In this document: positions 1-27,771 of the stretch, one piece after another | Layout of the letters: each line of letters begins with the position of its first letter | Numbering within the stretch: position 1 is the stretch's first letter | Assembly (NCBI GenBank): GCA_050115055.1 | Contig: JASFRE010000001.1 | Span: forward strand, 1-34,960 | Reading direction: 5' to 3' | DNA: 34,960 bases | Origin: Candidatus Eiseniibacteriota bacterium | GTDB lineage: Bacteria; Eisenbacteria; RBG-16-71-46; CAVPCR01; CBDCWB01 | Translations under genes and position numbers: made by a program | The notes under the pieces: model-generated | What the model was told of the DNA's origin: nothing | Seen by the model: the letters and a program-made list of their open reading frames with translations, nothing else | Databases searched by the model: none

Positions 1-2480
1 GCCGCGTCCGTCGCGTTCCAGCGCACCGCGTGGTCGCCGGCGCCGAGCTCGCGATCGACGAGGGTCGCCACCTTGTGGCCACTGATCGTGTAGACCTCGA
101 CCGTCACACGCTCGCTCCGTGGCAGCCGGAAGCGGATCTCCGTGCTCGGATTGAACGGGTTCGGCGCGGCCGCTGTGAAGCCGAAGGCCGCCCCGTCGTG
201 GCGTGCCGGGCCGTCCTGGAACCCGGATCCCTCGCAGGCCTCGGTCACGACGTTGGCGGCCGGGTCATAGGTGGCACCGGACTCGACGACATCGGTCACG
301 GCGAGGCACCAGATGCCGGTGGGCTGCCGCTCCTTCTTCGAGATCAGGACGGCCTCACCCGACGCATCCGTGACGCCGCTCGTCGCCTCCGTCGTGGGAC
401 CGCTGAACGTCCCGAACACCTCCGCACCCTCGACGGGGCCGCCGCCGCCATCGAAGACGGTCACCGTCGCCTCGGCGAAGTACTGGTCCGGACCGTTGGC
501 CGCCAGTCGCACGACCGTGATCGCCTCGACGTGCACGTAGACCACGGTGCCCGGTTCGGTCGCCGTGACGTAGTCGGGCGCCAGCCGCGTGTCGGCACCA
601 TGGGCGTTGCTGGCGGTCAGCGACACGCTGTACGTCCCCGCCGTCGTGTAGACGTGACTCGGATGCTGCGCGTCGGAGGTGGAACCGTCGCCGAAGTCCC
701 AGCTCCAGGCCGTCGGCGACCCGGTCGACAGGTCGGTGAACTGGACGCTCAGAGGCGCCGGTCCGGAGAGCGGCTCGCCACGGAAGTCGGCGACCGGCGG
801 ATCGGCCGACGGCGCCTCCCAGCTCGCGGTCGACATGGCCACCGGCGCCGACTTGCCGTTGGCGCTCCACAGGTCGTAGAGCACCTGTCCCGAGCCGTCG
901 GTGGTATTCGCGTCACGCAGGAACTCGACGTACTCGCGGCTCAGCGTCTGGTAATCGAGCGTGACGTCGATGCGCTCGGCCGTCGATGGGATCGAGTAGA
1001 CGGTCGCGTCCCAGTACTGCCCGTCGTCATAGCTGTAGCCGACCGGCGGTGACTGGATCGCCGCGAAGCCGGCGTTCGTGAAGCCACGCGGCGGGATCCG
1101 GTTGTCCTTGAAGATCTCGTGGTTGAGCACGAAGTGGAAGGACGGTCCCGGATCCAGTCCCAGGGTCGGTGCCAGTGCCTCGGAGATCCCCGGCTTGATC
1201 TCGTAGATCTTGACGTCCGCGTCGTGCGTCAGGGTGGCGGTCGCCGGATCGTAGGCGCCGGACTCGTAGACGATGCCGCCACCGGCATCACGCGCCACGA
1301 CATGGATCCAGATGCGCCGCCCCTCCGGATAGCCGGACGGCAGCTTGTGGCCGGTCTCGTTGGTCACGGTGACGGTCGCCTCCAGCACATCGCCCTGGTC
1401 GACGACCGCGAGGTCGAGGGACGCCGCCCGCTCGAGCATGTCGGTCGCCCGCTGGACACCGGCGGCCAGGGCCGGCGAGGAGACCTCGTCCGGATAGAGC
1501 TGCTCGACCAGCACCGGGATGAACGTGTTGCCGCCGGTCATGTCGTGCAGCGGCAGATCGTCGCGCAAAGGCGCTCCGCGCTTGTTGCAGCCCACACCGG
1601 TCACGTCGCGGAGGTGACAGTCCTGGCAGACCGAGACGTACTGCTTGTTGCCGCCGAACTGCGGTGCGTAGACCCCTTCGGGCGAGTTGTAGGCGCTCAT
1701 CAGCCACTCGCTGTAGGTCCGTTCGATCGGAAACATCGAGTCGGGGACGAAATCGGGGGCCGGCGCGCCGAAGTCATTGGGCACGTAGCTGTCACCGCTC
1801 CGCATGAAGGCGGGGTTGCTGACGTCATGACAGGTGCCGCAGAGCGCCGCCTCTCGGTGGAACGGCGAGTAGAACATCTGGTGGCGCGCCGCAGCGTCGA
1901 CGAACGGCCCGCGCTTGGCATTGTTGCTGTCGCAGACGTACATGCCGTTCGCCGAGGCGGGCGGGATCTCACCGAGGGTCGACAGGTAGGCCTGGTCGGC
2001 GTCATAGGTGCTGGCCCGGTAGTCCGGATCGCCGGGAAATGGATCGACACCGAGGGGCGTCGGAGCGACCAGCTTGTGGCAGAAGTCGCACTGCACACCC
2101 TCGCGATCGTTGTTGTTGAGCGCCGAGCCGTCGGTCGGTACCGAGCGTCCCTCGAGCCATCCGGCCGGCGAGTGACAGCGGATGCAGAGATCGCCGCTGT
2201 CGGGGGCATCCTGGTTGGCGATGGCCAGGCAGGCGTAGAACAGCGGGTCGCGCGCCGCCTGCGCCATCATGCTTCCCCGCCAGTTGAATGCCGGCTCCAC
2301 GGCCTGGTCATAGCCGCCGTGGCAGTTGTCGCACTTGCTCGGGTGCTCCAGGTTGCCGGACTGCCCCGGCTGCGAACCGGGCAGGAAGAAGTCGTCGAGC
2401 GTCGTCGGCACGGAGGCCCAGGCGACGGCCACCAGCACGAGAGCGGTCGTAACCGCTGCGAACACGAGTCGTTTGGACAT
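1..2480 (-). CDS. Multiheme c-type cytochrome (5 CxxCH) with PKD domain and FlgD-Ig/T9SS-like C-terminal domain; C-terminus cut by the window edge
   Basis: Not in the supplied ORF track because the frame runs off the left edge without a stop. My reverse-complement reading from the ATG at 2480 (GGAGGA 7 nt upstream) gives MSKRLVFAAVTTALVLVAVAWA, a signal peptide. It then shows CDNCH, CIRCH, CDFCH, CGTCH and CQDCH, and a PKD-type segment WDFGDGSTSDAQHPSHVYTTAGTYSVSLTASN. It ends inside APNPFNPSTEIRFRLPRSERVTVEVYTISGHKVATLVD. Open for all 826 codons read. Confidence 0.9.
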   Translation of the reverse strand, partial: MSKRLVFAAVTTALVLVAVAWASVPTTLDDFFLPGSQPGQSGNLEHPSKCDNCHGGYDQAVEPAFNWRGSMMAQAARDPLFYACLAIANQDAPDSGDLCIRCHSPAGWLEGRSVPTDGSALNNNDREGVQCDFCHKLVAPTPLGVDPFPGDPDYRASTYDADQAYLSTLGEIPPASANGMYVCDSNNAKRGPFVDAAARHQMFYSPFHREAALCGTCHDVSNPAFMRSGDSYVPNDFGAPAPDFVPDSMFPIERTYSEWLMSAYNSPEGVYAPQFGGNKQYVSVCQDCHLRDVTGVGCNKRGAPLRDDLPLHDMTGGNTFIPVLVEQLYPDEVSSPALAAGVQRATDMLERAASLDLAVVDQGDVLEATVTVTNETGHKLPSGYPEGRRIWIHVVARDAGGGIVYESGAYDPATATLTHDADVKIYEIKPGISEALAPTLGLDPGPSFHFVLNHEIFKDNRIPPRGFTNAGFAAIQSPPVGYSYDDGQYWDATVYSIPSTAERIDVTLDYQTLSREYVEFLRDANTTDGSGQVLYDLWSANGKSAPVAMSTASWEAPSADPPVADFRGEPLSGPAPLSVQFTDLSTGSPTAWSWDFGDGSTSDAQHPSHVYTTAGTYSVSLTASNAHGADTRLAPDYVTATEPGTVVYVHVEAITVVRLAANGPDQYFAEATVTVFDGGGGPVEGAEVFGTFSGPTTEATSGVTDASGEAVLISKKERQPTGIWCLAVTDVVESGATYDPAANVVTEACEGSGFQDGPARHDGAAFGFTAAAPNPFNPSTEIRFRLPRSERVTVEVYTISGHKVATLVDRELGAGDHAVRWNATDA

Positions 2481-2662
2481 GGTCTGGTCCTCCGTCGGAT
2501 CGGTGAGCGGCCGGCGGGCACGACGGACATCCGGCGGGCGGAGGGTGGTCCCGCACAGACGCTGCGGCGAGTGGGCGACGGAATGCCGGCCAGCAATGGC
2601 CCCGACACTCCCAGTGTACGCCGGTGCAACGCGTCCACCCATCACCGGCGTCAGGTCGGCAG

Positions 2663-2676
2663 TTGATCTCGGTCAA
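2663..2676. promoter_or_regulatory. Candidate FNR/CRP-family box TTGATctcgGTCAA (9/10 match to TTGAT-N4-ATCAA)
   Basis: The sequence at 2663-2676 is seen directly. It lies 183 bp upstream of the cytochrome ATG (2480) and 60 bp beyond the stop of the adjacent FNR-like regulator gene. That regulator keeps the E-x2-SR recognition-helix motif (ETLSR) that reads TTGAT half-sites in E. coli FNR. Confidence 0.5.
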
Positions 2677-2735
2677 CTCGCGGCAGTCGACCCCGGCCCA
2701 CGCGTGGAGGAGGGCGACCCGAGCCGCCCGGCGAC

Positions 2736-3461
2736 TCAGCGCGCCCTGGCAATCCGCCCCAGGCCGTCGACATCCTCGAGGACCAGCTCGGCACGGGTCA
2801 GCCGGATCAGGCCCTGTCGACCGAAGTCGCGCAGGGTGCGTGACAGGGTCTCCGGAGTGGTGCCGATCATCTGCGCCATTTCCTTGCGGCGCAGCGCGAT
2901 CCGCGTGCGCGTCGGGATCCCGGTGCTCTCCCCGGGGCCCGACTGGGAGGAGGTCCCGCCCTGCAGGAAGAGCAGGAGCTGGGCGGTGCGCTGCCGCACC
3001 GGATGCTGTGTGAGGCTCACCAGCTGGTCCTCGGAGATGCGCAGGTCCCGCGCCAGCCAGGCCAGGAGCTCGAGCGCCAGCCGCTCCGAGCTGCGGATCA
3101 GGCCGAGGATCAGCTCCCGGGGAATGACACAGAGGGTGGAGTCGACCAGCGCCTCGGCGGTGGCAGCACAAGGCTCGTCAGCGAGCAGTGGCCGGTAGCC
3201 GATCATCTCCCCGGCACCGAGCAGACGGATCACCTGGGTGGTGCCGCCCTCGCCGGTCTTGAACAGCTTGATGGTGCCCAAGTGGATGCAGTACAGCGCC
3301 AGCGGTGGTGCACCCTCGTAGAACACGGTCTGGCCGCGATGGAAGCGCTGGACCTGCTTGCCGTCGTCGAGCTCTCGCAGGGCCGGGCCTTCGAGGCACC
3401 GGAACACGCCCGAGGCGCGTACCTGGCAGAGCGTGCAGTCGATGTCGGCCCGTTCCATCAT
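2736..3461 (-). CDS. Crp/Fnr family transcriptional regulator, FNR-like (putative Fe-S oxygen/redox sensor)
   Basis: ORF 2736..3605, trimmed to the ATGATG at 3461 (MMERADIDCTLCQVRASGVFRC...). It has a cNMP-binding-like beta-roll and a C-terminal HTH (RKEMAQMIGTTPETLSRTLRDFGRQGLI). The N-terminal C-x2-C-x9-C plus the Cys in STLCVIPRE align with E. coli FNR C20/C23/C29 and with C122 in SMVCEIPFE. Confidence 0.85.
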   Translation of the reverse strand: MMERADIDCTLCQVRASGVFRCLEGPALRELDDGKQVQRFHRGQTVFYEGAPPLALYCIHLGTIKLFKTGEGGTTQVIRLLGAGEMIGYRPLLADEPCAATAEALVDSTLCVIPRELILGLIRSSERLALELLAWLARDLRISEDQLVSLTQHPVRQRTAQLLLFLQGGTSSQSGPGESTGIPTRTRIALRRKEMAQMIGTTPETLSRTLRDFGRQGLIRLTRAELVLEDVDGLGRIARAR

Positions 3462-3642
3462 GGCGTCGGCATGGTACGCGAGCGACTGCGGGGCGTCGAT
3501 GCCGACCTGCCGGCGCTCCGGATCGCGCCCCTGGCGGCGCGGGCCCGCCCCGGGAGACCCCCTCGGGAGCCCGGTTCGCCGCCGCACCGCCGCCGCACGT
3601 TGCACTCCATTCTCAACAACAAGAGGATGGCGCGTGCGTGAT

Positions 3643-3693
3643 GTGCACGGAGGTGCACGGTCGTGACACCGTCGTCGAGACTGTCGTGCACCG
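3643..3693. repeat. Cluster of GTGCACGG repeats (two direct copies and one 7/8 inverted copy) in the divergent fnr-like/ccp intergenic region
   Basis: gtgcacgg occurs at 3643-3650 and 3653-3660. tcgtgcac, a 7/8 inverted copy, is at 3684-3691. The related gtcgtgacac and gtcgtgcacc are at 3660-3669 and 3683-3692. All read directly from the sequence. Confidence 0.4.
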
Positions 3694-3912
3694 CATGCTA
3701 CACGACGTGCGTGCGGCAGGCAGCCCGGCGAATCGAATGTTGACGGTGATGCACAGCTTTGGCTGCACGTCCCGGTGACGCGGTCTTGACCGCTTCCTCA
3801 CTCCATCCTCGATTGACACCGGATCGGAGAGCGCCGTATCCTGAACGAGGTCCCTCCAAGCGCCGAACAGCACCTCCCCCATGCCCACCGTCGTCGCACT
3901 GGAGGTAACCCG

Positions 3913-5382
3913 ATGCGTGTCGTCGCGCTCTGCACGCCGCTGGTTCTGCTCGCGCTCTCACTGCCGGCCTCCTCGTCGGCCGATCTGACGCCGCTCGAGA
4001 CGCTCGGCAAGATGCTCTTCTTCGACACCAACCTGTCGACGCCGCCAGGGATGTCCTGCGCCGCCTGCCATGCGCCGGAGTGGGGCTTCACCGGTCCCAT
4101 CGCGTCGATCAACGCGGCCGGCTCGGTCTACTTCGGTGCGGTGCACGTCCGCTCCGGCAATCGCAAGCCGCCGACCGCCGCCTACGGCGGCCCGAGCCCG
4201 GTCCTGTCCTACGATCCGGCGGAGGACGTCTGGATCGGCGGCATGTTCTGGGATGGCCGTGCCACCGGCTGGAGACTCGACGATCCGCTCGCCGAGCAGG
4301 CCCAGGGACCGTTTCTGAACCCGCTCGAGCAGAACAACCCCAACCCCCGCCTCGTGCTCATCAAGGTCAGCCAGTCCTCCTATGCCGATCTCTTCGAGGA
4401 GGTCTGGGGCCCCGGCTCGCTCGACTTCGTGGGCGATGTCGACGGCAGCTACGAACGTCTGGCCCGATCGATCTCGGCCTACGAGCAGTCCGACGAGGTG
4501 AACCCCTTCACGTCGAAGTTCGACATCGCGCGCGGCGAGTTCACGCAGGAGGAGGAGTGGGGTCTGCAGCTCTTCGAGGACCCCATGAAGGGCAACTGCG
4601 CCGCCTGCCACCCGACCACGCCCGGCGACTTCGATCCGGATCACGCGCTCTTCACCGACTTCACCTATGACAATCTCGGGCTGCCCAAGAACCCGGAGAA
4701 CCCGTTCTACGGCATGCCGCCCAAGTGGAACCCGGACGGCGCCGACTGGGTCGACCCCGGACTCGGCGGCTTCCTCGCGGGCACGCAGTACGCCTCGCAG
4801 GCACCCGAGAACTACGGCAAGCACAAGGTGCCGACGCTGCGCAACGTCGGCCGCAAGCCGGCGGCGGACGATGTCAAGGCGTACGGTCACAATGGCTACT
4901 TCAAGACGCTGACGGACATCATGCACTTCTACAACACGCGCGACGTCGAGCCCTGGCCGGATCCGGAGGTGTCGGCAAACGTCAACTACGACGAGCTCGG
5001 CGATCTCGGGCTCACCCAGGAGGAGGAGGACGCCATCGTCGCCTTCCTGCTGACGCTCAGCGACGGGTACGGCATGCCGGAGCCCATGGCTCCGAACCCG
5101 GCCCGCTCGCCGTCACTGGCCACGCTGACGTCGATCCGGGCCTATCCGAACCCGCTGCGGACCGACGGCTTCGTCGAGTGGCAGGGCGCCTCGACGGCGC
5201 TGCGTCTCTACGACGCCAGCGGCCGGCTGGTGCTGACGCGCGACGTGGCCGGCCGAGGCGACGGCTCGCACCGCATCGCGTGGGGCGATCTCGTCAACCA
5301 CCAGGCGCTCGCGTCGGGCGTCTACTTCCTGCACATGGACGGCGTCCCGCAGGCGGCGAGGCGGATCGTCGTGACGCGGTAG
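3913..5382 (+). CDS. Di-heme cytochrome c peroxidase (CCP/MauG family) with FlgD-Ig/T9SS-like C-terminal domain
   Basis: GGAGG lies 7 nt upstream of the ATG, followed by a signal peptide (MRVVALCTPLVLLALSLPASSSA). Two heme sites are present, CAACHAPE and CAACHPTT. Family motifs are LGKMLFFDTNLS, KVPTLRNV and YGHNGYFKTLTDIMHFYN. The C-terminal about 85 aa (YPNPLRTDGFVEWQG...RLYDASGRLV...GVYFLHMDG) resembles the tails of three other proteins in the window. Confidence 0.9.
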   Translation: MRVVALCTPLVLLALSLPASSSADLTPLETLGKMLFFDTNLSTPPGMSCAACHAPEWGFTGPIASINAAGSVYFGAVHVRSGNRKPPTAAYGGPSPVLSYDPAEDVWIGGMFWDGRATGWRLDDPLAEQAQGPFLNPLEQNNPNPRLVLIKVSQSSYADLFEEVWGPGSLDFVGDVDGSYERLARSISAYEQSDEVNPFTSKFDIARGEFTQEEEWGLQLFEDPMKGNCAACHPTTPGDFDPDHALFTDFTYDNLGLPKNPENPFYGMPPKWNPDGADWVDPGLGGFLAGTQYASQAPENYGKHKVPTLRNVGRKPAADDVKAYGHNGYFKTLTDIMHFYNTRDVEPWPDPEVSANVNYDELGDLGLTQEEEDAIVAFLLTLSDGYGMPEPMAPNPARSPSLATLTSIRAYPNPLRTDGFVEWQGASTALRLYDASGRLVLTRDVAGRGDGSHRIAWGDLVNHQALASGVYFLHMDGVPQAARRIVVTR

Positions 5383-5545: not shown

Positions 5546-6487
5546 ATGCCTGCCTGTCTCCAGCATGGCTTCCACGCCGGCCGCGACGCGTCGATCGATG
5601 GCCGCGTCGCCGCCCTCCTCCGGCTCGCGCTGGGGGTCACGCTCGCGGCCTGTGTCGCCGCCGGCGCCGCCCCGGCGTCGACCTGGGTCGAGATCGGCGA
5701 CGCCGGCGATCTCCCGGACGATGCGCAGATCCCGGGCGGCACCGGCCCCTTCACCGCCATCTCCGGCTCGCTGCTGGCTGGCGGCGATGCCGACCTCTAC
5801 CTGATCCACGTCGACGACCCGGTGGGCTTCGAGGCCACGACCTGTCCGGACAGCGATGTCGACACGCAGCTCTGGCTCTTCGCTCTCGACGGCCTCGGGA
5901 TCACCTTCGACGACGATGCCCCCTCCTGCGGAGTCCTCTCGACCATCACCGGCGCGCACGTGCCGGCCCCCGGCCGCTACTACCTGGGATGCAGCGCCTA
6001 TGACTGGGACGCGCTCGACGCCGCCGGTGACGCCATCTGGCTCGACGAGCCGTACGACACCGAGCGGCCACCGGACGGTCCCGGCGCCGCTTCGCCGCTC
6101 GCGCAGTGGGGCGACACCGCCTACGAGGAGGGCAGCTACGTGATCACGCTCGCCGGGGTCTCCTGGGCGGTCACGTCGGTCGACCCGGTCGCTGTCCCCG
6201 CGCCCGTCGACTGCCTTCTCGACCAGAACGCGCCCAACCCCTTCAACCCGCACACGGTGATCCGGTACGAGCTGTTCCGGGCGGCGCCGATTCGCCTCCT
6301 GGTCTATGACATCTCCGGCCGCCTCCTGCGCGTCCTGATCGACCGCCGCCTGGCAGCGCCCGGTGCGCATTCGACCGCCTGGGATGGTCGCGACGACGCC
6401 GGACACGACGCCCCGTCGGGCGCCTACCTCTGCCGGCTGGTGGCCGGCGATCGCACGGCGACGATCCGCATGACCCTCGTCCGGTAG
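5546..6487 (+). CDS. Secreted hypothetical protein, PPC (pre-peptidase C-terminal)-like domain plus FlgD-Ig/T9SS-like C-terminal domain
   Basis: There is a hydrophobic signal-like segment (LLRLALGVTLAACVAAGAA) and a GDADLYLIHV motif typical of PPC-type domains. The tail is APNPFNPHTVIRYELFRAAPIRLLVYDISGRLLRVL...GAYLCRLVAGD. The exact start is uncertain. Confidence 0.7.
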   Translation: MPACLQHGFHAGRDASIDGRVAALLRLALGVTLAACVAAGAAPASTWVEIGDAGDLPDDAQIPGGTGPFTAISGSLLAGGDADLYLIHVDDPVGFEATTCPDSDVDTQLWLFALDGLGITFDDDAPSCGVLSTITGAHVPAPGRYYLGCSAYDWDALDAAGDAIWLDEPYDTERPPDGPGAASPLAQWGDTAYEEGSYVITLAGVSWAVTSVDPVAVPAPVDCLLDQNAPNPFNPHTVIRYELFRAAPIRLLVYDISGRLLRVLIDRRLAAPGAHSTAWDGRDDAGHDAPSGAYLCRLVAGDRTATIRMTLVR

Positions 6488-24045: not shown

Positions 24046-27000
24046 CTACTTCATGAGCACCATCTTCCGGGTCCGCGACGCGTCACCGGCCGTGACCCGG
24101 TAGAAGTAGATCCCCGACGACTGACCGCTCGCGTCCCACAGCACCTGCCGCACGCCGGCCGGCTCGACCCCGTCGACCAGCCGCGTCACGTGCTGTCCCC
24201 GCACGTTGAAGACGTCGACCGTGACGTGGCGCGCCTCGGGCAGCTCGTAGCTCAGGCGGGTGATCGGATTGAAGGGGTTCGGCAGGTTCGGTCGCACCGC
24301 GAAGCGGAGCGGCAGACCGGAGGCCGCCGGCCCGCCGACCGCCGTCGTCGAGCCGCCGATGCTCGGCACGAAGCGGATCGCCCGCCCCTGGGTCAGCGTC
24401 GCCGCCCCCGGGACGTAATCGTTCCAGTAGGTGTAGAGCAGGCCGTCGGAGTGATCGTGGTTCTGGATGCCGACCGACGCGTAGCCGTTCACGGGATCGT
24501 AGTTCTGCACCGTCTGGTACTGGAACTCGATGATCCCGTCACCGGTCGCCGTCGTGTGATAGGCCGGATCGTAGAGGATCACCTCGAAGGTCTCGGTGGC
24601 GCCGTTGTAGTCGTTGCGGAAGCGGCTCCACTCGATCGTCCAGGTGTGCGCGCCGCTGTCGTAGTGCTCGAACGCCTTCGACGAGCCGCTCGACTGGTAG
24701 AGGTTGTCCCAGAACGGGCAGAGCATCGCGTTGGGACCGCCGGCGCTCGGCAGCGACCAGTTGCGGTAGTTGGTGAGGTAGGTCTCGCCCATCGCCAGCC
24801 AGCCGTTCGAGCAGACCGTCGCCCGGTCGTAGTCGACGCCGTAGTAGCGGAAGGTGAACGGCAGGTCGACGATGCGCGACCGGTCCTGGTAGCCGCCGTA
24901 GTCGCCGAGCACCACCTCGGTGCCGTTGCCACCGTAGGTCGGGTCGAGCTCGATCCAGCTGTAGGTCGGCGCCTCGTCGTAGGCGGTATCCGTGTTGTCG
25001 AATGCCATGTAGCCGTAGGCATCGGGACCGAACGGGTCGTCCGTGGCCAGCTGACCGACCGGCACGGTCACGTACGCCGTGTCGACCGCGCCGCCCGAGA
25101 ACGACGTGATGACCAGCAGGCCGGCCTGGTGTCCCTCGTAGGTGTTGGCGGCGGCGCTCACGCCGAAGCGGTCGACCGTGTTCTCGCCCGCCCCGCCGAT
25201 CGAGATCGTGCCGAACGAGCCGGTGCCGTCGGTCACGGTGACGAACGGACTCGTCGAGACCAGCGTGCCGGTGATGCCCGTAGCGGTCACGCCGCCGGTG
25301 TTGACCAGCTGGACACTCAGCTCGATCGATTCGCCCGGATCGAGGAGGCCGTTGCCGCCGGCGTTATAGAGCGTGGTGCCGTGCGCACCGAGGGCGGCCG
25401 AGACAACCGGCAGCTCGAACTGCGAGTCCCAGCGCGTGAGCCCCGAGGTGACTGCCAGGTCGAAACGCAGGACGTGGCCGTCGGGGCAACCGCCGCTCAC
25501 GGTGAAGTCGAAGTCGTCCGCGCTCCACGCCGTGGCCCCGGCGGCGATGTTGCCGAAGATCTCCTCGGCGTCGGTGACCGTCACGTAGGGATCGCTGGAG
25601 CTGAGCGTCGCCTCGACGCCGGCCGCGGTATTGACCCCGAAGTTCCGGAGCAGCGTGCGGAGCTCGATCGATTCGGTCGGGTTGAGCTGCCCGTTGCCGT
25701 TGCCACTGCTGGTGCCGTTGCCGTCGTCATCGATGCCGAGGCTCTCGTAGCCGACGTAGATGTCGTACTGCACCACCGGCACCGTCGCCAGGAACGCGTG
25801 ACGGTTGCGCTGGGTCACCGTGAGCTGGAGATCGCCCGCCACGGCCTGATCGATCAGCAGATCGGCCCTGCCCGCGGCGTCCGTGAAGGCCACCACCGGC
25901 TCGCCGCCGTCGACCAGGGCACAGACCTGCGCACCGGCAGCCGGGGCGTCACCCGGTCCGGTCACGACGATCGGCAACGTGTTGGCCCCGACCGGCAGCT
26001 CGGACGGGTGGGAGACGGTGAACGGATCGGGATAGGCCTGGTAGACCTCGAGCGCGGGATCGCCCATCAGGTTGTTCCAGTAAGCCCAGATCTCCGCCTC
26101 CTGCGGCTCGCTGTTGCCGTAGCAGAGCCAGAGCTCGATCTTGCCGCGGGTCAGCGCCGCGCCCATCGTCAGCTCGTCGCGGATCAGGCCGTGCCACACA
26201 CCGTAGTAGATGCAGTTGTTGTAGCGCGTGTGCGTGCCGCTCGTGGCGGTGCCGATGGCGCCGATCCCGCCCCTCACGCCGGTCGCGCCGCTGCCGGCGC
26301 GCAGGAACCCCTCGGAGCGCGACGTGCTCGAGGCGAACGAGCCCGTGCCACAGGTCATGATGACGCAGAACGGCATCTCCCAGCCGTTGGTCAGCTGGTA
26401 GGTATCGGCGTTGCCCCAGCCGCTCATCCCTAGCCAGCCGCGGTAGCCGAAGACGGTGTCGCCACGATCGAGGGCCTCGCCCATCAGGTAGTCGAAGTTG
26501 CCGGAGAAGACCGTGTCGACCTCGGTGTAGCCGATCTCCAGCAGGCGCTCCTTGACCCACTGGTTGATGATCACCGTGCTCTGTCCCGAGCTCGACGGGT
26601 CACCGACCACGCAGCCACGCGTGAACCAGCCGGGATCATCCAGCATCGGTGGGTCGGTCTCGTAGCCGACGATCTTGTTGACGATGCGCTCGAGCTCGAC
26701 CAGGTCGCTGCCGTTGAACGACAGACGACCGATGTGCACGTCGGAGAGGATGTCGGAGCCCTCGAGAGTCGTGTAGGGATGATCACCTTCCCCGTGGTAG
26801 AAGCTCAGGTTCTCGTAGAAGCACGGCAGCGCGTAGGTGCCGCTGGCGTCGCCGACCAGCGTCACGTACTCCAGATTGAGCGACGGATCGTCGTAGACGC
26901 CCTGGATGAAGTTCTTGATCGAGGTCGTCGAGGTGCCGGTCTGGGCAGTGGTGGCAAAGAGGACCGGCGATCCCTTGCGCTGGCGCCACTCGATCAGCGG

Positions 27001-27771
27001 TTGCAGTCGGTCGATGACATTGGCGTTGTTGTAGCAGATCAGGAGATCGGTGCCGGGCGCGATCGACTGCGAGGCGTCCGGTCCCTCGTAGTTGACGACC
27101 ACGTCGCGGTAGATGCGGTCGAAGCTCGGCGGGATCGTCGAGCGCCGGACGCGGCGGGCGGCACGCGGGTCATCGCCCGTGAACGCGACCTCGACTCGCA
27201 TCCGACGGGTGATCTCCAGCGTGCGCGTCGCGGCGTTGTAGCGCACCGGCCGGAAGGTCAGGTCGACGACGCGGAGATCGCGCAGCACCGCCGGTTCGCC
27301 GACCGTCACGCGCTCCCCCGTGCCGCCGGTGTCCCCCGAGATCAGAGCGTCGCGCGCATAGGCCGCCTCGTCGTAAACGAAGGCGGCGTTCGGATCACCG
27401 TCCTGGAGCGGTGCCAGGAACACGTTGTCCCGCGTCTCGACCTCGAGGGGCTCGACGGTCACCTCCACCCCGCGACCGTCGGGAACCGCCACGAAACGTG
27501 AGAAGTTCGGGATCGCCGGCGCCCCGATGTCGCCAGCCAGCCCGCCACCGGCGATCGAGATCACGTCGAAGGCACGACCCGCCATCTCGACGGTCGCCGA
27601 CTTGAGCTCGGGCAGCTCGAGCTCGAGGCGCACGCCCTCGGAGGTGGTGTCGGTGACCTGGATGCTGGGCATCTCCCCGGCGGGCGGCAGCATGAGGGCA
27701 TCCTCGAATGCCAGCGCAGGGAGGGCGAACATCAGACAGCAGAGCACGCCGATCGGGACGAGACGACGCAT
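24046..27771 (-). CDS. Peptidase C25 (gingipain-like cysteine protease) with propeptide, two CARDB-like repeats, an extra beta-rich domain and a FlgD-Ig/T9SS-like C-terminal domain
   Basis: GGAGGA lies 4 nt upstream of the ATG, followed by the signal peptide MRRLVPIGVLCCLMFALPALA. Gingipain-type segments are YVTLVGDA, HGEGDHPYT and FCVIMTCGTGSF (candidate catalytic Cys). Tandem repeats are NPTESIELRTLLRNFG...VTVTD and DPGESIELSVQLVNTG...VTVTD. The tail is LPNPFNPITRLSYELPEARHVTVDVFNVRGQHVTRLVD...GIYFYRVTAGD. Confidence 0.85.
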   Translation of the reverse strand: MRRLVPIGVLCCLMFALPALAFEDALMLPPAGEMPSIQVTDTTSEGVRLELELPELKSATVEMAGRAFDVISIAGGGLAGDIGAPAIPNFSRFVAVPDGRGVEVTVEPLEVETRDNVFLAPLQDGDPNAAFVYDEAAYARDALISGDTGGTGERVTVGEPAVLRDLRVVDLTFRPVRYNAATRTLEITRRMRVEVAFTGDDPRAARRVRRSTIPPSFDRIYRDVVVNYEGPDASQSIAPGTDLLICYNNANVIDRLQPLIEWRQRKGSPVLFATTAQTGTSTTSIKNFIQGVYDDPSLNLEYVTLVGDASGTYALPCFYENLSFYHGEGDHPYTTLEGSDILSDVHIGRLSFNGSDLVELERIVNKIVGYETDPPMLDDPGWFTRGCVVGDPSSSGQSTVIINQWVKERLLEIGYTEVDTVFSGNFDYLMGEALDRGDTVFGYRGWLGMSGWGNADTYQLTNGWEMPFCVIMTCGTGSFASSTSRSEGFLRAGSGATGVRGGIGAIGTATSGTHTRYNNCIYYGVWHGLIRDELTMGAALTRGKIELWLCYGNSEPQEAEIWAYWNNLMGDPALEVYQAYPDPFTVSHPSELPVGANTLPIVVTGPGDAPAAGAQVCALVDGGEPVVAFTDAAGRADLLIDQAVAGDLQLTVTQRNRHAFLATVPVVQYDIYVGYESLGIDDDGNGTSSGNGNGQLNPTESIELRTLLRNFGVNTAAGVEATLSSSDPYVTVTDAEEIFGNIAAGATAWSADDFDFTVSGGCPDGHVLRFDLAVTSGLTRWDSQFELPVVSAALGAHGTTLYNAGGNGLLDPGESIELSVQLVNTGGVTATGITGTLVSTSPFVTVTDGTGSFGTISIGGAGENTVDRFGVSAAANTYEGHQAGLLVITSFSGGAVDTAYVTVPVGQLATDDPFGPDAYGYMAFDNTDTAYDEAPTYSWIELDPTYGGNGTEVVLGDYGGYQDRSRIVDLPFTFRYYGVDYDRATVCSNGWLAMGETYLTNYRNWSLPSAGGPNAMLCPFWDNLYQSSGSSKAFEHYDSGAHTWTIEWSRFRNDYNGATETFEVILYDPAYHTTATGDGIIEFQYQTVQNYDPVNGYASVGIQNHDHSDGLLYTYWNDYVPGAATLTQGRAIRFVPSIGGSTTAVGGPAASGLPLRFAVRPNLPNPFNPITRLSYELPEARHVTVDVFNVRGQHVTRLVDGVEPAGVRQVLWDASGQSSGIYFYRVTAGDASRTRKMVLMK

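Follow-up and report, generated by a model that had tools for sequence, protein, structure and literature searches.

The window analysed here is an entire contig of 34,960 nucleotides from an uncultured Eisenbacteria-like bacterium represented by a 4.27 Mb MAG (81% complete). An earlier sequence-only reading had placed two heme-protein genes near one end of it, and we confirmed both: positions 3-2480 on the reverse strand encode a pentaheme c-type cytochrome precursor of 826 aa (P0001; CXXCH motifs and homologues), and positions 3913-5382 on the forward strand encode a MauG/BthA-like di-heme enzyme precursor of 489 aa (P0002; CCP_MauG, 97 bits). Sec signal peptides had also been proposed for both; on inspection, both N-termini resemble Sec-type leaders (MSKRLVFAAVTTALVLVAVAWA ahead of a serine in P0001, MRVVALCTPLVLLALSLPASSSA ahead of an aspartate in P0002). 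P0001 carries five CXXCH motifs (residues 50-54, 99-103, 131-135, 214-218, and 285-289), all invariant among 43 homologues, and P0002 carries two (residues 49-53 and 229-233). Judged from sequence, both genes encode genuine c-type heme proteins.

Between them, at 2736-3605 on the reverse strand, lies a gene for a Crp/Fnr-family regulator (cNMP_binding, 73 bits; HTH_Crp_2, 55.8 bits), which runs in the same direction as the cytochrome gene and is divergent from the di-heme gene. An FNR/CRP-type palindrome, TTGACCGAGATCAA (2663-2676), lies ahead of the cytochrome gene, about 185 nt from its start codon. It is the sole match to TTGATN4ATCAA with one mismatch in the window, where seven matches with up to two mismatches were observed against 1.75 expected. 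The cytochrome gene, and perhaps both heme genes, is probably controlled by this intervening regulator.

Architecture and role of the pentaheme cytochrome

The 3' end of the cytochrome gene is cut by the contig end, leaving about 23 C-terminal residues missing; their recovery from a neighbouring contig region had been suggested, but the remaining contigs of the MAG do not contain them. Residues 24-553 (822-2411, reverse strand) form a PHC-type pentaheme cytochrome domain, assigned with Foldseek and a family profile, with an Ig-like beta-sandwich containing a NETGHKLPSGYPEGRR motif inside it. The top PDB match of this region by Foldseek was 5ZE8 (E 1.5e-8, prob 1.0, TMt 0.46), which was also the sole heme-protein match of the family profile (E 3.9e-4); P0001 matches ExtKL NF040886 weakly. 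There follow a PKD domain (residues 568-639; 564-779, reverse strand; PF18911, 66.3 bits; PF00801, 59 bits), matching PDB PKD domains at E 5e-15, and a second, Big_1-like Ig beta-sandwich (residues 647-750; 231-542, reverse strand; PF02369 and AF2). PKD and Ig-like domains had both been claimed from the sequence. The PKD assignment stands, whereas the Big_1 match (24.9 bits) lies below the 34.9 cut-off, with strands present in the AF2 model at pLDDT >90.

Over 7,700 homologues share 65-77% identity with P0001, which belongs to a very large family with members in at least 596 species genomes. Cultured carriers of the family include Mangrovibacterium marinum DSM 28823 and Aestuariivivens sediminis. 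Its domain of about 530 aa keeps about 150 invariant positions at that identity across phyla, which is unusual for simple electron carriers, and its heme density is low, with five hemes in about 530 aa. These features, together with weak similarity to ExtKL and to selenoprotein-type MccSep cytochromes, favour a reading in which the exported pentaheme protein is an extracellular redox enzyme or substrate sensor, rather than a terminal cytochrome of extracellular electron transfer, and is functionally unrelated to the di-heme enzyme; consistent with the latter point, the two heme genes are neighbours only in the source genome, the di-heme gene lying elsewhere in relatives. We consider this the strongest alternative, though an unlikely one. 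The solved structure nearest in fold, 5ZE8, belongs to an electron-transfer cytochrome of low potential, we identified no feature of a catalytic site in P0001, and extracellular electron transport is the setting in which the PHC family, with Geobacter ExtKL/Gsu2801, has been discussed (PMC11976967).

On the reading that we prefer, the pentaheme cytochrome on its PKD and Ig stalk would be an outward-facing electron-transfer protein, possibly supplied with electrons by an MtrA/DmsE-family decaheme paired with an MtrB-like porin, and also by quinol dehydrogenases of the CbcL type. Candidates for such a supply are encoded in the genome: two GSU2203/DmsE-family decaheme matches score above cut-off (385 and 241 bits), a decaheme of this family adjoins a weak MtrB_PioB-like barrel, whose ORF has an in-frame TGA in the assembly, and two multiheme proteins are fused to FdnI-like cytochrome b, which we read as CbcL-like.

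A shared C-terminal domain and the machinery that may recognise it

Residues 771-826 of P0001 (3-170, reverse strand; APNPFNP...VYTISGHKV...WNATDA) comprise the first two thirds of a C-terminal domain (CTD). This segment matched positions 1-56 of an 84-position CTD HMM, built from the source genome's own tails, with 62 bits (E 6e-17), and the tails of P0001 homologues go on with ...SGVYxYRL...RKMxLLK. P0002 bears a complete CTD at residues 401-489 (5113-5379, forward strand; YPNP...LYDASGRLV...W...SGVYFL...RRIVVTR; TIGR04183, CTD HMM, and AF2), matching positions 1-82 of the same HMM at E 2.8e-12. Both matches are far beyond chance. Public models scored weakly on the whole proteins (P0001, FlgD_ig 20.3 and TIGR04183 15.8, with its tail incomplete; P0002, PF18962 19.2 and TIGR04183 22.4, cut-off 23), and both tails fell under the PF18962 gathering score. 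The T9SS/FlgD-Ig assignment made from the sequence nevertheless held up, as the P0002 tail, scored in isolation, passed TIGR04183 (27.3 bits) and the model matched 38 of 40 tails sampled from the genome.

Furthermore, this CTD of roughly 85 aa closes 216 ORFs of the MAG, and in 190 of them it ends no more than 12 aa before the stop codon, bearing out the earlier placement of such tails at the very end of proteins exported by Sec. Among the 40 sampled tails, 35 matched FlgD_ig and 20 PF18962, with FlgD_ig scoring equally or better, and 26 matched the PorU CTD. Against the PDB, the tail-family profile recovered PorZ (1.4e-7), PorU (5.7e-7), and the RgpB CTD, and its best sequence match was to FlgD structures (1.7e-10). 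The AF2 model of the P0002 tail is a seven-stranded beta-sandwich (pLDDT 84), whose best PDB match is PorZ (5M11) and whose top 20 include the RgpB CTD and the CTD of the cargo NucA in the SprA complex; its Foldseek E-values are poor, with comparable scores for many generic Ig folds. By their profiles, the tails are members of the T9SS type A CTD/FlgD-Ig superfamily. The same contig also encodes a gingipain-family C25 peptidase, a classical type of T9SS cargo (24046-27771, reverse strand; Peptidase_C25, 141.9 bits; Propeptide_C25, 80.3 bits), with the same CTD (Por_Secre_tail 27.4 bits, cut-off 27; CTD HMM 82.7 bits).

The spread of the tail was surveyed in 80 cytochrome homologues. Tail-bearing homologues occurred in Eisenbacteria (5/5), Krumholzibacteriia (3/3), Fibrobacteraceae (2/2), Gemmatimonadetes (1/1), Latescibacterota (3/3), and Zixibacteria (3/5), and none were seen among 27 PVC homologues, comprising 24 from Planctomycetota and three from Verrucomicrobia. 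The tail thus tracks phylum, with FCB-group members bearing it and PVC members lacking it; it follows the secretion system rather than the cytochrome. Other family members bear dockerin or cadherin-like extracellular modules in its place. The tail-bearing architecture is not rare, because thousands of family members carry it, and some are already labelled 'T9SS type A sorting domain-containing protein' at NCBI.

SprA and PorU are both encoded in the source genome, scoring above cut-off at 543 and 436 bits, and porU has a PorV/PorQ-family gene as its neighbour (198 bits against a cut-off of 90). SprA was found in 61 of 61 sampled genomes of the phylum. GldK, GldL, GldM, and GldN were undetected in the source MAG, in Eisenbacteria RBG_16_71_46, and in a complete Zixibacteria chromosome, as were GldL and GldM in a complete Latescibacterota chromosome; in high-quality genomes of the phylum, GldM was found in 0 of 60 and GldL in 0 of 40. 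In two Bacteroidota used as positive controls, the same models scored 116-594 bits and recovered a contiguous gldKLMN cluster in both. GldKLMN is required for secretion in Bacteroidota. Of the T9SS core genes whose search had been proposed, those for sov/SprA, PorU, and a PorV/PorQ-family protein were therefore present and those for PorK/L/M/N (GldK/L/M/N) were not, so that we refer to a T9SS-like sorting system and not to a demonstrated canonical T9SS.

The undetected GldK/L/M/N, the working controls, the larger number of tails matching FlgD_ig than PF18962, the FlgD structures as top PDB sequence matches, and the similar scores of generic Ig folds would all fit a CTD that serves as a generic Ig module of the FlgD type, perhaps for oligomerisation or attachment in the periplasm or at the inner face of the outer membrane, leaving the heme proteins periplasmic, as the CTD-less Planctomycetota homologues presumably are. 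We find this improbable. The domain sits at the extreme C-terminus of unrelated Sec-exported proteins, nearly all sampled copies match TIGR04183, the C25 peptidase on the contig shares it, and PorU of the source genome itself bears it, as in P. gingivalis; SprA, universal in the phylum sample, and the encoded PorU and PorV would otherwise be without cargo, and CTD-less cytochrome homologues often carry the dockerin or cadherin-like modules.

As both heme proteins bear a T9SS-type sorting tail, the cell surface is their probable destination, and surface export of the cytochrome and the di-heme enzyme is likely on the sequence evidence. To the explanation as a whole, covering both c-type heme proteins, their T9SS-like CTD sorting, and their proposed roles at the surface, we give a probability of about 0.65. 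The surface display advanced by the sequence-only reading is thus supported in its tail family and in SprA, PorU, and PorV, but not in PorK/L/M/N or in the "peroxidase" class. That reading had named three outcomes that would count against it, namely tails scoring against neither model, no T9SS-like apparatus, and a generic Ig fold; none was found outright. In the proposed route, Sec would carry each protein to the periplasm, where, by general cytochrome c biogenesis, hemes would be inserted and the protein would fold. The C-terminal Ig-like domain would then guide it through an SprA-type outer-membrane translocon, and, by analogy with Bacteroidota, a PorV/PorU-type shuttle and sortase would release it or anchor it at the surface. 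The sorting system of this Eisenbacteria-like lineage is T9SS-like, with no detectable GldKLMN/PorKLMN motor and ring.

The di-heme enzyme and its downstream neighbour

P0002 had been called a di-heme peroxidase. Membership of the di-heme CCP/MauG family was upheld, but classical cytochrome c peroxidase was rejected, since MauG (E 3.6e-39) and BthA (2.6e-38) are closer PDB matches than classical bCcP (about 1e-9) and equivalents of MauG Tyr294 and Trp93 are present. Equivalents of Gln103, Pro107, and Glu113 are also kept, and a His/Tyr-ligated second heme is therefore predicted. MauG orthology was rejected as well (TIGR03791, 45 bits against a cut-off of 444), and the MbnH equivalog model scored 70 bits against 363. 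About 21 of the best 119 P0002 homologues carry the CTD; the remaining ones are CTD-less proteins of roughly 393 aa in Planctomycetota and Myxococcales. Outside the cell, the enzyme may carry out peroxide-driven oxidation or peroxide reduction, and the heme proteins together may serve extracellular electron transfer or peroxide detoxification.

Directly downstream, at 5546-6487 on the forward strand, P0003 is a secreted protein of 313 aa with the same CTD (FlgD_ig 30.3 bits, GA 27; genome CTD HMM 100 bits). It is Trp-rich, and six of its Trp and two of its Cys residues are invariant. The Tyr/Trp features of bis-Fe(IV) chemistry kept in P0002, the composition of P0003, and the retention of the gene pair in the two closest relatives (loci L100 and L101; P0003 orthologues 57-60% identical) despite differing flanks would accord with a MauG/MbnH-like oxidative modification of P0003 by P0002, both exported by the same tail. 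This too is doubtful: the pair is kept only in those two relatives, and at the more distant loci L102-L105 the di-heme gene, with or without CTD, stands alone with no P0003-like neighbour, so that the pairing may simply be inherited from a recent common ancestor. In P0002, Gly takes the place of MauG Trp199, through which holes hop to the partner protein, and both equivalog models are far below their cut-offs.

Comparison with known systems

A literature search found no paper describing a T9SS-tail surface route for cytochromes, and cytochromes and di-heme enzymes are absent as cargo classes from two T9SS reviews (PMC11205867, PMC11285876). Like the Bacteroidota type A cargo RgpB, PorZ, PorU, and F. 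johnsoniae NucA/ChiA, the proteins described here combine a Sec leader with an 80-90-aa, seven-stranded Ig-like CTD, and the source-genome tails share the PNP, GxY, and basic-hydrophobic end motifs of TIGR04183/PF18962. SprA, PorU, a PorV-family protein, and a tailed C25 peptidase are likewise encoded. The system differs in its Eisenbacteria-like host, in undetectable GldK/L/M/N, in tails that fall between the FlgD_ig and Por_Secre_tail profiles, and in its cargo, a holo-cytochrome and a di-heme enzyme.

P0001 resembles Thermochromatium tepidum pentaheme c552 (5ZE8) in the order of its parts, with an Ig-like domain placed after five c-type hemes, and c552 is its best structural match over 463 aligned columns, at only about 15% identity. 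Unlike c552, a soluble protein with no sorting tail, P0001 has a heme domain of far greater size (about 530 aa) and also bears PKD, Ig, and CTD modules. With the ExtKL equivalog model, P0001 scored 25 bits against a cut-off of 250. MtrC and OmcA of Shewanella are outer-surface decaheme cytochromes that reach their site through type II secretion. Conceptually, P0001 is similar: the multiheme cytochrome would be assembled in the periplasm, and a dedicated secretion system would then export it through the outer membrane. The DmsE/MtrA-family decaheme beside an MtrB-like barrel recalls the MtrAB-type conduit. Homology to MtrC/OmcA was rejected (PF22113, 18 bits against 30). P0001 has five hemes rather than ten, no lipobox, and a different secretion signal and machine.

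MauG (3L4M) and BthA (6NX0) are the best PDB relatives of P0002 (E about 1e-39) and share its two CXXCH motifs. Unlike MauG, P0002 lacks a mau or mbn operon context and has Gly in place of Trp199. To our knowledge, all characterised MauG/BthA-type di-heme enzymes work in the periplasm, whereas the sorting tail of P0002 would take this enzyme out of it.

The C-terminal domain of the two heme proteins

Two heme-protein genes of the contig encode a pentaheme c-type cytochrome precursor (P0001) and a MauG/BthA-like di-heme enzyme precursor (P0002), which are almost certainly genuine heme proteins with a genuine C-terminal domain (CTD) of the T9SS family. The metagenome-assembled genome (MAG) to which they belong consists of 562 contigs (4.27 Mb, 71% GC, 81% complete, 2.2% contaminated). 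Its RpoB fragment shares 76% identity with that of Candidatus Eisenbacteria RBG_16_71_46, and 67–69% with its counterparts in genomes of Gemmatimonadetes, Krumholzibacteriia, and Zixibacteria (one each). We therefore treated the host as an Eisenbacteria-like, FCB-group lineage outside the Bacteroidota.

A hidden Markov model (HMM) was seeded with the tail of P0003, the secreted 313-aa protein encoded next to P0002, and iterated over all stop-to-stop ORFs of the MAG until it converged at 216 ORFs. The domain ended within 12 residues of the stop codon in 190 of these. P0001 matched the model at E 6e-17 (model positions 1–56 of 84) and P0002 at E 2.8e-12 (positions 1–82), which upholds the T9SS/FlgD-Ig-type domain that a sequence-only reading had assigned to both proteins. 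The sorting domain of P0002 ends 3 aa short of the stop codon; the end of that of P0001 is lost at the contig end. The Sec-type leaders claimed in the same reading were also seen: judged by eye from the translations, each N-terminus has a short basic segment, then a hydrophobic stretch, and then an AxA-type site. Extreme C-terminal placement combined with such a leader (identified by inspection) is the arrangement of a T9SS type A CTD.

Searches with public models, which the sequence-only reading had proposed, gave borderline scores. The isolated P0002 tail scored 27.3 bits against TIGR04183 (cut-off 23) and 24.1 bits against PF18962 (cut-off 27); as a whole protein, P0002 scored 22.4 and 19.2 bits, respectively. 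P0001, searched whole with its truncated tail, remained below the cut-offs, with 15.8 bits for TIGR04183 and 20.3 bits for FlgD_ig (cut-off 27), and PF18962 is present in its full-length homologues. When 40 representative tails of the MAG were scanned one by one, TIGR04183 matched 38, FlgD_ig 35, the PorU CTD 26, and the PorZ CTD and PF18962 20 each. A comparison of the tail profile with the PDB retrieved FlgD Ig domains (E 1.7e-10) and the CTDs of PorZ (E 1.4e-7), PorU (E 5.7e-7), and RgpB (E 2e-4).

The AF2 model of the P0002 tail is a seven-strand Ig-like beta-sandwich (pLDDT 84) with the RgpB/PorZ/PorU-type fold. Its top Foldseek match was PorZ (5M11), and 8GLK chain D (the NucA CTD in the SprA complex) and RgpB (7PQ4) appeared within the top 20; as these matches had E-values no better than 2e-3 to 3e-2 and Ig folds of a generic kind scored alike, the predicted structure agrees with a T9SS CTD but cannot tell it apart from other Ig folds. 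Taken together, the results place the tail firmly within the T9SS type A CTD/FlgD-Ig superfamily; in this genome it tags the C-termini of a great many exported proteins. Fold by itself is no proof of function.

The same tail is carried by P0003 (5546–6487, plus strand) and by a C25 gingipain-family peptidase (24046–27771, minus strand). Among the heme proteins of the MAG, only three possess it: P0001, P0002, and a second, unrelated five-heme cytochrome fragment on contig C392 (3–707, plus strand; 235 aa), which is cut at its 5' end and closes with the sorting tail. Another tail-bearing protein of 869 aa is encoded downstream of this fragment on the same contig.

The pentaheme cytochrome and the di-heme enzyme

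The P0001 gene runs from an ATG at position 2480 on the minus strand to the contig end, encoding 826 aa without a stop codon (3–2480). It had been suggested that the missing C-terminus could be recovered from the neighbouring contig region; contig C1 in full is the window, and a blastn search with its first 300 nt found no overlapping contig in the MAG and matched only paralogous CTD-coding DNA elsewhere (75–93% identity). Such DNA forms a dispersed repeat among paralogues at this level of nucleotide identity, found at 1–170 of the window and on about 14 other contigs (e.g., C69:6471–6636 and C417:4033–4111). As eight tail-bearing ORFs are cut by contig ends, the CTD repeats probably account for some of the breaks in the assembly.

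In an alignment of 43 homologues, the five CXXCH motifs of P0001 were invariant, as were about 150 further positions within residues 25–550. Of the PKD and Ig-like domains proposed previously, the PKD domain was recovered by Pfam at 66 bits; the match to the Ig domain Big_1 was below threshold. The AF2 model had a mean pLDDT of 75, and its heme-binding half was poorly predicted, as expected from the absence of cofactors. Its best PDB match by Foldseek was 5ZE8, pentaheme c552 of T. tepidum (E 1.5e-8, TMt 0.46), which the family sequence profile also retrieved (E 3.9e-4). 5ZE8, ExtKL, and Gsu2801 belong to the "PHC" family, related to archaeal cytochrome nanowires (PMC11976967). P0001 shares with this family five CXXCH motifs, a C-terminal Ig-like domain, and structural likeness to 5ZE8 at the level of the overall fold, pLDDT being low in the heme-binding half; its match to the ExtKL equivalog model was weak (25 bits, cut-off 250). 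These data identify P0001 as a PHC-type cytochrome of large size, borne on a stalk that PKD and Ig modules make up. Homology to MtrC/OmcA/MtrF was rejected, with PF22113 (domain II/IV) at 18 bits against a cut-off of 30.

The heme domain (residues 1–560) has more than 7,700 homologues with 65–77% identity. PF18962 or PF13860 was present in roughly half of the best 119 of these by our count, and some are already labelled "T9SS type A sorting domain-containing protein" by NCBI; in many of the others, a dockerin or cadherin-like module occupies the C-terminal end. We then applied the tail HMM to the 80 best cytochrome loci, scoring a tail where the domain lay at the ORF C-terminus. Tails were found in all loci from Eisenbacteria (5/5), Krumholzibacteriia (3/3), Latescibacterota (3/3), Fibrobacteraceae (2/2), and Gemmatimonadetes (1/1), in three of five from Zixibacteria, and in 8 of 18 from Bacteroidota, in which the model trained on this MAG is less sensitive; there were none in Planctomycetota (0/24) or Verrucomicrobia (0/3). 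These counts indicate that the tail tracks the phyla owning SprA-type systems rather than the cytochrome, as a modular sorting signal would be expected to do.

P0002 is encoded completely at 3913–5382 on the plus strand (489 aa) and contains two CXXCH motifs (CCP_MauG, 97 bits). The sequence-only reading took it for a cytochrome c peroxidase, an assignment that has to be replaced. Its best PDB relatives were MauG (E 3.6e-39) and BthA (E 2.6e-38), aligned over the entire catalytic domain, whereas classical bCcP structures matched its N-terminal half only (E ~1e-9). Furthermore, P0002 has a tyrosine at the position of the MauG ligand Tyr294, and the equivalents of Trp93, Gln103, Pro107, and Glu113 are also kept; Trp199 is replaced by Gly. 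A classical di-heme bCcP, with a His/Met-ligated electron-transfer heme, was rejected on these grounds. The tail was found on about 21 of the best 119 P0002 homologues; most of the others are tail-less proteins of about 393 aa from Planctomycetota and Myxococcales, 65–70% identical. As with the cytochrome, some lineages of a periplasmic enzyme family have thus gained the tail.

P0002 scored 45 bits against TIGR03791 (cut-off 444) and 70 bits against TIGR04039 (cut-off 363); it shows neither the equivalog score nor the dedicated partner or operon of a MauG/MbnH protein-modifying enzyme. The one protein that might act as its partner is P0003, which is Trp-rich, secreted, about 300 aa long, and tailed, with no recognised fold; the sole hint of family was a weak DVUA0089/FDP match. 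P0003 is possibly a MauG/MbnH-style substrate, because in the two nearest relatives the tailed di-heme gene is likewise followed immediately by an orthologue with 57–60% identity (L100:7552–8436 and L101:7514–8398). However, at four more distant di-heme loci the P0003-like neighbour is absent and the di-heme gene stands alone, and we retain this partnership only as a rival explanation of low confidence. A conserved module of cytochrome and di-heme enzyme was rejected as a general feature, since in none of the relatives examined does the cytochrome gene lie near the di-heme gene.

The sorting machinery

The sequence-only reading had called for a search for T9SS core genes, which produced part of the canonical system. 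SprA/Sov was identified on contig C60 as a 2,249-aa ORF (TIGR04189, 543 bits summed, cut-off 200), and SprA was present in all 61 genomes sampled from the phylum. PorU was also detected (NF033707, 436 bits, cut-off 420) and itself carries the same tail. The gene adjoining porU encodes a protein of the PorV/PorQ family (NF033709, 198 bits, cut-off 90; PorV equivalog model, 123 bits, cut-off 250). Thus, the SprA/Sov translocon, the PorU sortase, and the PorV shuttle of a canonical T9SS have counterparts in the MAG. Directly downstream of porU–porV, on contig C112 (3064–5483, minus strand), are two paralogous membrane proteins of about 380–400 aa. They had no family match and have an ALxPGLGxL motif in common; we regard them as candidate lineage-specific components of the sorting system.

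The motor, PorL/PorM (GldL/GldM), and the ring, PorK/PorN (GldK/GldN), were not detected. In profile searches of the MAG, none of GldK, GldL, GldM, and GldN exceeded its cut-off, and the sole GldK-model match was a 53-bit match to an FGE domain. All four were likewise undetected in Eisenbacteria RBG_16_71_46 and in a complete Zixibacteria chromosome (CP070766), as were GldL and GldM, the two searched, in a complete Latescibacterota chromosome (CP070763). Among high-quality genomes of the phylum, GldM was found in 0 of 60 and GldL in 0 of 40; GldM was searched with both the TIGRFAM model and a Pfam model of its N-terminal domain, and neither matched in the relatives. With the same models, two Bacteroidota in which this cytochrome family also occurs each yielded a contiguous gldKLMN cluster (116–594 bits). 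Because GldK/L/M/N went undetected while these controls were positive, we concluded that the system is T9SS-like and lacks one of the features by which the canonical T9SS of Bacteroidota is defined. Motor and ring have either diverged beyond detection, or the translocon is energised in another way. A genomic survey found complete T9SS only in Bacteroidetes (Abby et al., PMC4793230), a result in the same direction as ours. Several FCB phyla thus seem to have a T9SS-like sorting system from which the known motor and ring are missing.

Considering the tails, their distribution, and the SprA–PorU–PorV set together, both heme proteins would be exported across the outer membrane by the SprA-based system, a reading to which we assign a probability of about 0.65.

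Redox context and possible significance

Between the two heme genes lies a gene for a Crp/Fnr-family regulator (2736–3605), whose product has a C-x2-C-x13-C cysteine cluster at its N-terminus. An FNR-type palindrome, TTGACCGAGATCAA (2663–2676), precedes the start codon of the cytochrome gene by about 185 nt and is the only one with a single mismatch in the window. The palindrome and the adjoining regulator with its cysteine cluster suggest that the cytochrome gene may be under redox or oxygen control.

The respiratory multiheme repertoire is large for an Eisenbacteria-like genome, with ORFs of 19, 16, 13, 11, 10, 10, 9, 8, and 8 hemes. On contig C118 (3316–6712, minus strand), a decaheme cytochrome that passed both the GSU2203-family (385 bits) and the DmsE/MtrA-family (241 bits) models is followed by an MtrB_PioB-like outer-membrane barrel of about 730 aa ending in GFRIGF, whose match to MtrB_PioB was weak (18.7 bits, cut-off 23). 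The barrel gene has a single in-frame TGA in the assembly, between ATVMDG and AGHLSG, which could be a sequencing error, a pseudogene mutation, or a recoded codon. Fusion to an FdnI-like di-heme cytochrome b membrane domain is seen in both the 19-heme and the 11-heme cytochrome, which we read as a CbcL-like architecture, and a hexadecaheme HmcA was found at 513 bits; the two fusions and HmcA lie on contigs C101 (2672–5704), C129 (2–2029), and C154 (4941–7049). A plausible and wholly inferred electron path would lead from quinol through the periplasm and a porin–cytochrome to the surface cytochrome. A specific role of the two proteins in extracellular electron transfer or peroxide chemistry is proposed tentatively.

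Outer-surface cytochromes do the actual work of extracellular electron transfer. To our knowledge, how they cross the outer membrane is understood only in a few Proteobacteria, which use the T2SS, and no characterised MauG-type enzyme acts outside the cell. The pentaheme family has at least 596 carriers in a scan with one genome per species, and about half of its closest members have a T9SS-type tail. If the tail works here as in Bacteroidota, uncultured phyla of sediments and soils would deliver redox proteins largely by a route so far unrecognised, that of T9SS-like systems. A high-valent heme oxidant of the MauG type would then also act outside the cell, possibly a new location for such an enzyme. 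As GldKLMN went undetected in these phyla, it has to be asked what energises the SprA translocon. The same cytochrome occurs in cultured Bacteroidota (Mangrovibacterium, Draconibacterium, Aestuariivivens, and Gilvirhabdus), making the secretion claim directly testable.

The tailed-cytochrome architecture is itself abundant in databases and partly auto-annotated. In the open-access literature, where absence is no proof, we found no paper linking the T9SS to the export of cytochromes or heme enzymes; secreted multiheme cytochromes have been predicted in Bacteroidota with the T9SS unmentioned (PMC11495043). New here are the non-Bacteroidota host, the lack of detectable GldKLMN in such hosts shown with positive controls, the finding that the tail follows phylum, the recognition of the "peroxidase" as MauG-like, and a candidate MtrAB-like feeder.

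On a wider scale, we consider it conceivable, though rather unlikely, that FCB bacteria outside the Bacteroidota (Eisenbacteria, Zixibacteria, Latescibacterota, Krumholzibacteriota, Gemmatimonadota, and Fibrobacterota) use SprA–PorU–PorV sorting without the GldKLMN motor and ring to display di-heme oxidising enzymes and fully assembled multiheme cytochromes on their surface. If so, electron transfer and peroxide chemistry outside the cell would have a widespread route in sediments and soils that has not been described before. The proposed SprA–PorU–PorV display would then be the functional parallel of the T2SS-dependent display of MtrC/OmcA in Shewanella.
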